Below, piece after piece: positions 16,664 through 64,000 of a stretch of 64,000 nt of DNA. A program made the position numbers and the translations under genes. The notes beneath the pieces were generated by a model. The model saw only the letters and a list, made by a program, of their open reading frames with translations. It searched no databases and was not told the origin of the DNA. The stretch comes from Cyclobacteriaceae bacterium (lineage in GTDB: Bacteria > Bacteroidota > Bacteroidia > Cytophagales > Cyclobacteriaceae). How positions within the stretch are numbered: the first letter of the stretch is position 1; the number at the start of each line of letters is the position of its first letter. Location: assembly GCA_022841475.1 (NCBI GenBank), contig JALHRJ010000019.1, positions 13,733 to 77,732 of the forward strand, given 5' to 3'.

Positions 16664-17680
16664 TTACATGGGTAATACTACTATAAACTCAGTGCCCTCC
16701 ACCTCCTTTGTCTCTACCTTTATTTCTCCGTTATGTGCTTTGGTCACGATATCATAACTCATGCTTAATCCCAATCCAGTGCCTGCTCCCGCGGGCTTGG
16801 TCGTGAAAAACGGTTGAAAGATTTTATCTAAAACTTTTTGTGGAATACCATTTCCGTTGTCTTTGACTGAAATCAAAACTTTATCACCTTCTCTTTTAGT
16901 AGACACAGTAACCATTGGTTCGTAACCCGGAAGATCTTGTTTTTTCTTTTCATACACAGAATAAAAAGCATTCGTGATCAGGTTTAAGATTACACGACCC
17001 ATATCCTGTGGCACAACAGAAACTTTACCAAGGCTTTCATCAAATTCTGTTTTCATCGAAGCGTTGAAGGCCTTGTCTTTAGCACGCAACCCATGGTAAG
17101 CCAGGCGCAGATACTCATCGGCCAATGCATTGATATCAGTGGGTTCTTTCACACCGCTGCTGCTGCGACTATGTTGAAGCATTCCCTTTACAATCCCATC
17201 GGCACGCTTGCCGTGAAAAATTATTTTCTTTTCATTCTCATCGATATTATCAGCAATGTTTTTGGCCTCCTCAAAATTCCCTTTCGACAGTTCTTCCTTC
17301 ATTTCCGCAATCAATTCGGAGTTGACTTCTGCAAAATTGTTTACAAAATTGAGTGGGTTCTGAATTTCATGCGCAATGCCGGCTGTAAGTTCACCGAGGC
17401 TGGCCATCTTTTCTGATTGAATCAATTGTGATTGCGTGGCCTTTAATTCGGTGTACGCCTTCTCGATTTCTTTGGCTTGTTTCAATTCCCGTTCACGGCC
17501 GCGCTACCACTTGATCGTTGCTTTTTTTGAGGTAAAAACCTCTTCCTTAGTGGTGCCTAAAAGCCAATATGCTTCATCCAGGCAGGAGGCAAAGGTTTTA
17601 ACATTACCGGTCAGGTAGCTATTCCAATAAGTATCGTAAACGTTTTGGATTTCGGCCTTGAGTTTTTTAGTGAGGGCCAT
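16664..17680 (-). pseudogene. Sensor histidine kinase remnant: short N-terminal fragment, in-frame TAG, then HisKA/HATPase
   Basis: ATG at 17680 is in frame (65 codons) with the kinase ORF at 17485; TAG at 17504-17506; H-box AHEIQNPLNF, N-box NLITNAF, DNGNG, FFTTK, GTGLGL. Confidence 0.65.
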
Positions 17681-26152: not shown

Positions 26153-26614
26153 TTATTCCAATGGTTTAAAAATATATCGTTCATCATACTCGATATCAAA
26201 CTGATCTAAAAGTTCACGATACTCATCTAAAAATGTTTGCTTGGCATGATGAGTTTCCTGATTCTGTATATACTTGATTACGTCTGCTATCTGAGACTTA
26301 CTATACGAAAAAGCTCCAAAGCCCGATTGCCATTCAAAATGTGATGAAATAAATTTTTTATCATTAATCCATTTAGATGAATTTGCTTTTACATCCTGCA
26401 TTAAATCAGAAAGCGATTGAGTGGGGCGCATTCCAAAGAAAATGTGAACGTGATCTTCCACACCATTAATAATTAGCAACTTATGTCCATTCTGCTGAAT
26501 GATTCCCGTTATATACTTGTACAATTCGTCTTTCCAATCTTTCCCAATTACACACAATCGATACTTCACCGCAAAAACGGCTTGAATATGAATCTGTGTG
26601 TATGTGTTAGGCAT
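26153..26614 (-). mobile_element. tnpA: IS200/IS605-family HUH (Y1) transposase, no tnpB
   Basis: HUH motif EDHVHI; WQSGFGAFSYS; catalytic Tyr in VIKYIQNQ; 153 aa. Confidence 0.92.
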
Positions 26615-28411: not shown

Positions 28412-28544
28412 GAGGCTGACCAAAAAGTCACAATATCAATCGAAGTGTCATTCCGGGCTTGACCCGGAATCCCGAAATTGTGCGTACTCCTCGGGATCGC
28501 GGGTCAAATGCCCGCGATGACTGAATGACTTTTGAGACAGCCTC
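28412..28544. mobile_element. MITE-like element: outer inverted repeats enclosing a REP-like hairpin doublet
   Basis: GAGGCTGACCAAAAAGTCA (28412-28430) / TGACTTTTGAGACAGCCTC (28526-28544); inner GTCATTCCGGGCTTGACCCGGAATCC and GGATCGCGGGTCAAATGCCCGCGATGAC; second copy at 63844. Confidence 0.75.
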
Positions 28545-43847: not shown

Positions 43848-43868
43848 CCTACCTGACCGGTAGGCAGG
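43848..43868. repeat. 21-bp palindromic mini-element
   Basis: CCTACCTGACCGGTAGGCAGG; ends match the insert at 63877-63910. Confidence 0.6.
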
Positions 43869-55994: not shown

Positions 55995-56000
55995 CACTAA

Positions 56001-56386
56001 TGCAAGCCGGCTTATCGCGCTCCGCCAGCTGGCGGAGGGAGGAAAGTCCGGGCAACACAGAGCATCGTACTTCCTAACAGGAAGGTCCGCCAGCTGGCGG
56101 AACAGATAGTGCCACAGAAAACAAACTACTCTTGCCTTAGGCGAGGGAAAAGGTGAAAAGGCGGGGTAAGAGCCCACCGCTTTGATGGTGACATCAAAGG
56201 CATGGTAAACCTTACGAGTTGAAAGGCCAAATAGGTCACGCTCACGAAAGTGATTAGCTGCTCGCTAATAGTTTATCTGGCGTGATTGGGTAGGCTGCTT
56301 GATCCTGATGGCAACGTCAGGGCTAGATAAATGATAGGCACCCTGACGGAACCGTCAGGGAACAGAACCCGGCTTATAGGCTTGCA
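56001..56386 (+). ncRNA. rnpB: RNase P RNA (type A)
   Basis: GAGGAAAGTCCGGGC, AGTGCCACAGAAA, GGTAAACC, AACAGAACCCGGCTTA conserved regions; P1 TGCAAGCC/GGCTTGCA. Confidence 0.95.
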
Positions 56387-56442
56387 TTATTTTGATTCTA
56401 CATCATCAATAAAATATGTTTCGAAAAAAAATCGAAGATTGT

Positions 56443-56542
56443 GTCAGCCTGAGGTTCTCGAAGGCTATAATGTTTAGTCAGGTCAGTTTTCCATGCCTGT
56501 TCCGCCAACTGGCAGATTCGGCAGACAGGGCCTCAAACTAAC
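56443..56542. repeat. Mosaic of nested palindromic elements downstream of rnpB
   Basis: GTCAGCCTGAGGTTCTCGAAGG arm; CCTGT-[TCCGCCAACTGGCAGA]-TTCG-GCAGACAGG; degenerate partner arm GCCTCAAACTAAC. Confidence 0.55.
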
Positions 56543-56602
56543 AACGTAGATAGTTTTATGTAATAAGTTTAAATTATAGAATTAGATCTAAACTGTAAAC
56601 CT

Positions 56603-63843: not shown

Positions 63844-64000
63844 AGGCTGTCTCAAAAGTCTTTCGGTCATCGCGGGCCTGCCTGCGCGTAGCCGCTTCGG
63901 CAAAGGCAGGCATTGACCCGCGATCCAGTTTCTCAAGGTATGATAGGATTCCGGCTCAAGGCCGGAATGACATTTCAATTTTAATTGACTTTTGAGACTG
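63844..64000. mobile_element. Second copy of the MITE-like element, with a 34-bp insert, truncated by window edge
   Basis: AGGCTGTCTCAAAAGTC ... GTCATCGCGGG[34 bp]CATTGACCCGCGATCC ... GGATTCCGGCTCAAGGCCGGAATGAC ... TGACTTTTGAGAC. Confidence 0.75.

Follow-up and report, generated by a model that had tools for sequence, protein, structure and literature searches.

The RNase P RNA gene (rnpB) of a soil/sludge-type Cyclobacteriaceae bacterium carries the same perfect 16-nt palindrome, TCCGCCAGCTGGCGGA, as the tip of both helix P3 and helix P9. Comparison with related genomes points to this 16-mer as the consensus member of a set of short, G+C-rich palindromic hairpin modules that are copied, at the level of DNA, onto hairpins already present, a reading to which a probability of about 0.6 may be attached. 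The window analyzed is the whole 64,000-nt stretch C19:13733-77732 of the present genome (G000), the assembly of which comprises 5.70 Mb in 282 contigs with 41.5% G+C. The features of rnpB and its immediate surroundings in the window are the following:

55999-56392, + strand: rnpB, bacterial type-A RNase P RNA (Rfam RF00010), host of both copies
56021-56036, + strand: P3 tip, exact 16-mer TCCGCCAGCTGGCGGA, the derived copy
56086-56101, + strand: P9 tip, exact 16-mer TCCGCCAGCTGGCGGA, the old copy
about 56226-56290, + strand: P15-P17 block, a mosaic segment
56341-56360, + strand: P18 tip, CCCTGACGGAACCGTCAGGG
about 56401-56580: MITE-like segment of ~180 nt, 3' of rnpB, which includes the shell palindrome listed next
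56496-56529: shell palindrome CCTGT[TCCGCCAACTGGCAGA]TTCGGCAGACAGG around a 14/16 copy of the 16-mer (56501-56516), with the 5' stem strand on one side of it and the TTCG loop on the other

The covariance model of RF00010 matches rnpB over its full length (281.8 bits against a cut-off of 100, model positions 1-367), and with this match above the gathering score, along with P4 and the other conserved cores, the gene is a member of the type-A RNase P RNAs. The first-pass annotation had placed exact copies of the palindrome on helices P3 and P9; sequence matching recovers both, 65 nt apart, the Rfam model puts both on these hairpins, and 100 shuffles of the sequence yielded zero matches to the 16-mer. 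The same annotation had noted an imperfect copy just outside the gene, nested in a second palindrome, and this too is borne out: TCCGCCAACTGGCAGA, a 14/16 match, lies 110 nt 3' of rnpB within a CCTG..CAGG shell.

Across 58 rnpB genes from the genus and the clade, together with 6 metagenome contigs, P9 has the form TCCGCC-N4-GGCGGA in at least 12 distinct Cytophagales lineages, with the loops AGCT, AATT, AACT, AGTT and TGTG, so that AACU and AGUU represent both orientations of the loop in the RNA. As the hairpin is common to so many lineages, the P9 copy is old, and the earlier view of it as a recent insert has to be given up. The exact 16-mer is found in P3 only in G000 and in the contig L121, which is 92% identical to it over 8.3 kb. 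In the next relative, L125, P3 is TCTGCCATCTGGTAGA, 12/16 to the 16-mer and with a compensated pair, and in L054 and L059 it is a more diverged hairpin of equal length with a loop that is that of their own P9, while the P3 tip of G012 is unrelated to the 16-mer. The relatives had been expected to show shorter and different P3 tips, whereas the P3 hairpin of the nearest ones, though diverged, is equal in length and alike in type. The identity of P3 and P9 is hence better read as probable local copying or homogenization from P9 than as two independent insertions. The likely history is one in which the P9 hairpin was old, P3 gained a related hairpin in an ancestor, and P3 was then overwritten by, or homogenized to, the exact P9 sequence 65 nt away in the lineage of G000 and L121. 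The ribozyme would tolerate such a swap because the P3 and P9 tips are peripheral, and because a 6-bp stem with a tetraloop restores the helix tip.

In the rnpB genes of other species, the hairpin shared within a gene is a different one. For example, CCCCGACTTGTCGGGG occupies two helices of one rnpB (P3+P9, P3+P18 or P9+P12, depending on the species), TCCCGATTTATCGGGA is present in P3+P18, and CCCGATAGCTATCGGG is nested within older P3 or P9 stems. The lineage UBA2371 (L056/L122), a separate one, carries the exact 16-mer on P18 and CCGCCAGCTGGTGG on P3. Helix pairs within one rnpB share a 9-mer in 21 of 292 cases against 8.9 expected, and 0/5000 label permutations reached 21, though this test across the 58 genes ignores phylogenetic non-independence. 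The rnpB of G022 carries a 28-nt hairpin in three or four of its helices, among them P9, P12 and P18, with the P9 copy inverted relative to the other two. Dispersal of this hairpin through the G022 genome was considered and ruled out, its exact core being found within that genome only in rnpB; thus, for that family, copying can be purely local rather than a genome-wide transposition.

Between G000 and L121, all the indels longer than 1 nt in the 8.3 kb lie in rnpB or in the adjacent MITE. In L121, TCCCGATTTATCGGGA, a palindrome that recurs in the genus, stands in place of the P18 tip of G000, with the breakpoints precisely at the base of the hairpin. The P15-P17 block differs wholesale: in G000 it matches the more distant relatives L054, L059 and L057, whereas the closer L121 and L125 share another block. 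This suggests recombination between divergent rnpB alleles, a process that could account for part of the tip swaps.

Being two copies of one perfect palindrome, the P3 and P9 tips are also complementary to each other. ViennaRNA predicts that the two pair as a 16-bp P3:P9 duplex in the minimum free energy structure (-166.4 kcal/mol, compared with -156.9 kcal/mol when both hairpins are forced), with a probability of about 0.95 for the duplex pairs, these values being for the secondary structure of the complete rnpB RNA by itself. Of the tip hairpins compared, none is as stable as that of the 16-mer by itself (-10.2 kcal/mol). The presence of the palindrome twice in an essential ribozyme entails a predicted strong misfolding or dimerization helix, and the pair would, if anything, endanger folding and bring no evident advantage; L121 has the arrangement too, so that it is tolerated.

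The proposal that the 16-mer is over-represented in the genome at large is upheld by a comparison with an order-5 Markov model: there are 7 exact copies against 0.001 expected, and 36 copies of TCCGCC-N4-GGCGGA against 0.14 expected, the family rising to 38 once 3-nt loops are counted too. The 16-mer ranks first among the perfect 16-nt palindromes of the genome, and TCCGCC-N4-GGCGGA ranks first genome-wide among hairpins whose stem is 6 bp and whose loop is 4 nt, against 0 for the non-complementary control. The copy number of the family is species-specific, ranging from 0 to 36 across 41 related genomes. All but one of the 38 copies lie outside long ORFs, whereas 87.5% of random sites fall inside them; many are within or beside genes for tRNA, tmRNA, rnpB or 6S-like RNA, or are nested in REP-like hairpins. 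Self-complementary loops (AGCT or AATT) are present in 10 of the 38, and as self-complementarity is meaningless for an RNA tetraloop, this may be seen as a sign of a DNA-level process. The independent events are far fewer than 38, since many of the copies ride as passengers in larger repeats.

Most of the copies with loops other than AGCT form the core of a nested structure, in which a shell, CCTGCCTGC^TTCGGCA(A/T)AGGCAGG, holds the 16-mer at the junction of the shell's 5' stem strand with its TTCG loop. These shells lie in turn between the stem and the loop of GTCAT-tagged REP-like hairpins, or within MITEs of ~90 nt, and they also hold other cores, which gives rise to 21-, 27-, 29- and 34-nt forms. 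The CCTGCC...GGCAGG palindromes (21-40 nt) occur as clean insertions into hairpin loops, without target duplication, in REP hairpins, tRNA T-loops and anticodon loops. Palindromes of this shell family in the window are the following:

43848-43868: 21-nt palindrome CCTACCTGACCGGTAGGCAGG of the CCTGCC...GGCAGG shell family, seen in the sequence
63877-63910: 34-nt CCTGCC...GGCAGG palindrome between the stem and the loop of the GTCATCGCGGG REP hairpin

The latter belongs to the same shell family that elsewhere hosts the 16-mer, and the hairpin that it fills has an empty sister at 28494-28521; this filled and empty pair, free of target duplication, agrees with the first-pass view of the insert at 63877 as a hairpin-targeting element. 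The MITE-like segment 3' of rnpB is present in G000 and L121 and absent in L125, L054, L059, L057 and L123, and related copies are found at C4:165 and C4:152133 of G000. A direct repeat near it, ATCGAAGA, was entertained as a target duplication and dropped, as the alignment breakpoints do not coincide.

There are seven solo copies with the AGCT loop: two in rnpB, one in a tRNA-Gly-like gene (C6:30604), two in an array on C24, one beside tRNA-Trp (C100) and one in an RNA on C213. The two exact 16-mers on C24 lie 323 nt apart in their repeat array. The array itself is intergenic (C24:31850-33000) and consists of units of ~100-300 nt with a terminator-like end, ...GGCC(C/T)G followed by the 16-mer or a decayed version of it and then by TCGTTCTTGATTTTTTT; some of its units have lost part of the 16-mer or carry another hairpin in its place. 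The RNA on C213 (C213:1-215, minus strand) is conserved at ~190-200 nt in G012 (C14:~16850-17060), with the exact 16-mer in both. It has a long rod fold (z = -4.6) and a U-tail and lies upstream of a serC-like gene; it matches no Rfam family significantly, shows a weak resemblance to 6S-Flavo (18 bits, E = 4.6), and is possibly an expanded 6S RNA. The P6 tip of a cobalamin riboswitch in G012 is likewise an exact 16-mer; at this position relatives have a series of related and unrelated hairpins and several species a TCCGCC-type one. This tip, P9 and the hairpin of the 6S-like RNA (kept in G012) look ancestral rather than newly hit. A further exact copy in G012 is in frame in a vWA/YfbK-like CDS (C8:138193-138208), with YDYEHPPAGGEDPF against YEYDQPKGDDPF in G000 (C10:~44600), and adds 6 nt (two codons) relative to G000.

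A filled and an empty version of one site are provided by the gene for tRNA-Gly(CCC). It is intact in G049, G059 and G071, where it reads ...GGTAG AGTGTCAGCT TCCCAAG..., and at the orthologous locus of G000 (C6:30582-30660), with flanks 82% identical in G049, it reads ...GGTAG TCCGCCAGCTGGCGGA TCCCAAG..., the 22 nt before and the 41 nt after the 16-mer being identical to the relatives. What has been exchanged for the 16-mer is a segment of 10 nt that includes the 3' strand of the D stem, and CAGCT is a microhomology common to this target and the center of the palindrome. ARAGORN no longer calls a gene at this locus in G000. Judged from the aligned sequences, the replacement is a DNA-level event, one that selection for a working RNA cannot explain.

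Beside many other tRNA genes there are short, incomplete duplicates of the gene, with an arm replaced or a loop interrupted. In the partial copy of tRNA-Cys, the 16-mer has taken the place of the D hairpin GCCGAGTGGC (GCC-GAGT-GGC), and the T-loop is interrupted at TTC^GAA by a 29-nt shell; in the case of tRNA-Arg, a 27-nt shell is found in the anticodon loop and in the T-loop. At tRNA-Trp and at tRNA-Ala of G012, the AGCT 16-mer stands in place of the tip of the T arm, and the G012 fragment is absent from the orthologous site in G000. Similar fragments occur at the tRNA-Met, tRNA-Gly, tRNA-Ser, tRNA-Leu and tRNA-Val loci. Mini-hairpins of 10 nt, with a stem of 2-3 bp and a 4-nt loop, are what was replaced in tRNA-Cys, tRNA-Met, tRNA-Gly(TCC) and the 34-nt shell form, and the T-arm tips replaced measure 13 nt at tRNA-Trp and 9 nt at tRNA-Ala of G012. 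G000 also has about 30 tRNA genes densely packed on a single contig (C37:14000-16320), 2-5 nt apart, in an array that may be mobile or phage-type, and a tRNA with the anticodon CTA, labelled Pyl by ARAGORN (C232:1334-1408), a possible amber suppressor-like tRNA.

In the mechanism proposed for the copying of the modules, a module would replace a small hairpin exactly at its base or enter at the stem/loop junction, with no target duplication, in either orientation and with a strong preference for nearby targets. The process favored, which we infer from the form of the products, is replication-linked template switching between hairpin-forming DNA, aided by microhomology, with classical transposition being less likely. 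Perfect palindromy that includes the loop, loop inversions and microhomology delins all point to template switching rather than to a cut-and-paste transposase, as do the absence of target duplication or terminal signatures and the accompanying partial duplications. Template switching at quasipalindromes (the Ripley model; the E. coli thyA/lacZ reporters) yields, at hairpins, perfect palindromes as well as loop inversions and complex delins, without a transposase, and the 16-mer resembles it in these products. However, to our knowledge, the quasipalindrome events are intramolecular or between sister strands and correct an existing quasipalindrome, the copying of a hairpin to unrelated loci being undescribed, and we know of no established case of template switching that results in long-range copying without flanking homology. 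It also counts against the template-switching explanation that no mobilizer, terminal signature or conserved target motif was found for the 16-mer, and that neither a target motif nor a target-site duplication is consistent at the junctions of the family copies and the tRNA sites. With the over-representation, the extragenic and stable-RNA-linked distribution, the precise tip swaps and the filled versus empty tRNA-Gly(CCC) site all observed, the first-pass picture of a mobile palindrome at hairpin tips stands in these respects, while for rnpB two independent insertions are the less likely reading.

Each of the rival explanations covers a part of these data and fails on the tRNA-Gly site, on the flanks of the Y1 genes, or on the solo copies with unrelated flanks. 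It might be held that UCCGCC-NNNN-GGCGGA is a favored, highly stable hairpin or a site to which an RNA-binding protein attaches, and that it was selected on separate occasions in stable RNAs such as rnpB (P3/P9/P18), the 6S-like RNA, the riboswitch P6 and tRNA-like RNAs. The concentration of copies in or near stable-RNA genes, the long persistence, with compensatory changes, of the hairpin at P9 and at the P6 tip of the riboswitch, and its rank as the most stable tip hairpin compared (-10.2 kcal/mol) would all be consistent with such selection. Yet at tRNA-Gly(CCC) the D stem is destroyed and the product is no working RNA; both loop orientations occur and self-complementary tetranucleotides are enriched; most copies are nested within intergenic REP-like repeats, and an exact one is in frame in the vWA-type CDS of G012; two copies in one RNA lead to the predicted misfolding duplex; and the same helices carry other palindromes in other species, all of which makes selection on the RNA quite an improbable account. 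An even less probable one combines ancestry with ordinary recombination, such that the P3 and P9 hairpins are old and became identical through homologous gene conversion between tips that were already alike, or through the import of foreign rnpB segments, and the copies elsewhere are unrelated passengers of MITEs. The ancestral P9, the P3 of L125, L054 and L059 as diverged hairpins of the same type, the mosaic of rnpB at the P15-P17 block and the larger repeats that carry most family copies speak for it, but the tRNA-Gly delins, the tip replacements at tRNA-Trp, tRNA-Cys and tRNA-Ala, the CDS copy of G012 and the sharp 16-nt boundaries with unrelated flanks are left unexplained.

The remaining rival, which bears on the identity of a mobilizer, is trans-mobilization by an HUH Y1 transposase (RAYT or IS200-type TnpA) that recognizes the hairpin on single-stranded DNA. 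G000 has six hits to PF01797 (Y1 HUH), three of them strong, and REP-type, GTCAT-tagged hairpin doublets exist in it that host nested palindromes, while the distribution of the 16-mer is extragenic, as would suit such an enzyme. The three intact genes are the following:

window ~26258-26602, - strand: Y1 transposase, IS200-type, intact, with its own hairpins AGTCCCnnnGGGACT / ATCCCTnnAGGGAT
G000 C188:754-1098: Y1 transposase, IS200-type, intact, with its own hairpins GCCCCAGCGGGGC
G000 C61:14750-15094: Y1 transposase, IS200-type, intact, with its own hairpins GGCTCCnnnGGAGCC

The hairpins around the Y1 genes are of the types AGTCCC..GGGACT, GCCCCAGCGGGGC and GGCTCC..GGAGCC, and as each intact gene has hairpin repeats of its own, several separate RAYT-REP-like systems coexist in one genome. 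At the four loci read (C19, C188, C61 and C41), there were other hairpins or none, and no TCCGCC or CCTGCC elements beside the genes. Moreover, the 16-mer is without a GTAG/CGTC-type tag, a guide/target tetranucleotide or a doublet architecture, and the Y1_Tnp hit counts do not track the palindrome counts across 41 genomes. The HUH TnpA-like mobilizer that the first-pass annotation had put forward is thus disfavored, the Y1 genes being flanked by different hairpins and none by the 16-mer, and mobilization of this kind is unlikely. The comparison with REP/REPIN elements and their RAYT transposases, i.e., extragenic palindromic hairpins in tens of copies (PMC3116915; PMC3733652), leads in the same direction. 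The 16-mer family resembles them as an extragenic, multi-copy palindromic hairpin (38 copies, 37 outside long ORFs), but it differs in that the flanks of the solo copies share no motif, such as a terminal tetranucleotide of the GTAG or CGTC type, in that no RAYT gene is flanked by the same repeat, in that the 16-mer is single or nested and never a spaced inverted doublet, and in that it also occurs within RNA genes. From the MITEs derived from IS200/IS605 and the PATEs, which have left and right subterminal hairpins that are distinct and insert 3' of a fixed tetra- or pentanucleotide, it is set apart as a single symmetric hairpin with variable bases 5' of the junctions.

Another kind of enzyme is associated with the tRNA genes. 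The small GIY-YIG ORFs of G000 (PF01541, ~80-95 aa) lie directly 3' of a tRNA gene in 8 of 8 cases, at five loci:

G000 C1:90880-91613: GIY-YIG locus (PF01541)
G000 C4:116928-117951: GIY-YIG locus (PF01541)
G000 C22:5039-5327: GIY-YIG locus (PF01541)
G000 C76:12186-12664: GIY-YIG locus (PF01541)
G000 C91:617-1346: GIY-YIG locus (PF01541)

At three of the five (those of tRNA-Arg, tRNA-Met and tRNA-Val, with 6 of the 8 ORFs), the ORFs are flanked by palindrome-carrying pseudo-tRNA fragments, and the GIY-YIG gene and the pseudo-tRNA form tandemly duplicated cassettes; ARAGORN miscalls two pseudo-tRNAs at GIY-YIG loci as tRNA-Met and tRNA-Arg. A pattern scan found no such fragments beside the ORFs of tRNA-Phe and tRNA-Leu. 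These units look like mobile or duplicating tRNA-linked nuclease cassettes. Under template switching, the copying may be initiated when a structure-specific nuclease nicks the DNA, and the GIY-YIG enzymes linked to tRNA genes are candidates for this role. A bolder version, speculative and on balance doubtful, would posit an undescribed "hairpin grafting" in Cytophagales, wherein such a nuclease, with the bare SLX1-like GIY-YIG proteins encoded behind tRNA genes as candidates, nicks hairpin DNA in highly transcribed stable-RNA genes and repair copies another hairpin, such that palindromes of 16-40 nt overwrite tips genome-wide. If true, this would drive the modular evolution of RNase P RNA, riboswitches and 6S-like RNA, while making tRNA pseudo-copies and now and then killing tRNA genes; as a side effect, the P3/P9 copies could provide an alternative 16-bp long-range or dimer helix.

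Among known systems, the behavior comes closest to that of SDR1-8 of Nostoc and other cyanobacteria and, more loosely, to REP elements and to the STRR repeats in rnpB. The SDRs were reportedly described by Elhai et al. in 2008 (Genome Res 18:1484) as dispersed, hairpin-forming repeats of 21-27 nt. These are said to be highly over-represented and nested, both in one another and in larger repeats, with mobility inferred from orthologues and without a known mobilizer, and on that description the 16-mer family is like them in being very small, over-represented, nested and mobile by orthologue comparison. It differs in belonging to Bacteroidota, in its unrelated sequences, in its smaller size (16 nt) and often perfect palindromy, in replacing mini-hairpins base for base and spreading between the helices of one RNA gene, and in its ties to tRNA pseudo-copies and GIY-YIG genes. 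A parallel might also be struck with the STRR heptamer repeats in P12 of rnpB from heterocystous cyanobacteria, reportedly described by Vioque in 1997, as in both cases genome-wide short repeats are tolerated in a peripheral helix of RNase P RNA; the STRRs, however, are tandem heptamers that lengthen P12, whereas the elements described here are single palindromes that make up, or take the place of, the tips of P3, P9, P12 and P18. The palindromic elements of Rickettsia are comparable as palindromic repeats inside genes, including RNA genes and in-frame CDS, but they are about 100-150 bp long and have no similarity to the 16-mer in sequence or size. Excision of the 16-nt tip from the RNA, as for intervening sequences of the rRNA type, is unlikely. 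A full-text search of the literature for these palindrome sequences and for palindromic repeats in RNase P RNA returned nothing relevant, and no description was found for Bacteroidota, nor of base-precise hairpin replacement in rnpB or tRNA genes.

If palindromes are routinely copied onto the tips of hairpins, ribozymes, riboswitches and other structured RNAs would have their peripheral helices remodelled blockwise rather than base by base, which would explain the high variability of the rnpB helix tips in the clade. The process can also inactivate genes, as at tRNA-Gly(CCC). The "very small mobile repeats", mainly documented in cyanobacteria, would thereby be extended to Bacteroidota, and the clean filled and empty sites offer a handle for finding the mechanism.

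Other short palindromes show comparable enrichment. Within the genus, the copies of CCGATAGCTATCGG number 0-21 per genome against a control of 0, and hairpins of the CTCTCC-, CCCGAT- and CCCCGA-types are likewise enriched in G000. The CTCTCC-N4-GGAGAG hairpins constitute a second abundant nested family, with 23 copies at a loop of 4 nt and 41 at loops of 2-6 nt, which sit in outer palindromes of the form CCCTCACCCC...GGGGTGAGGG on contigs C3, C5, C13, C15, C40, C60 and others of G000.
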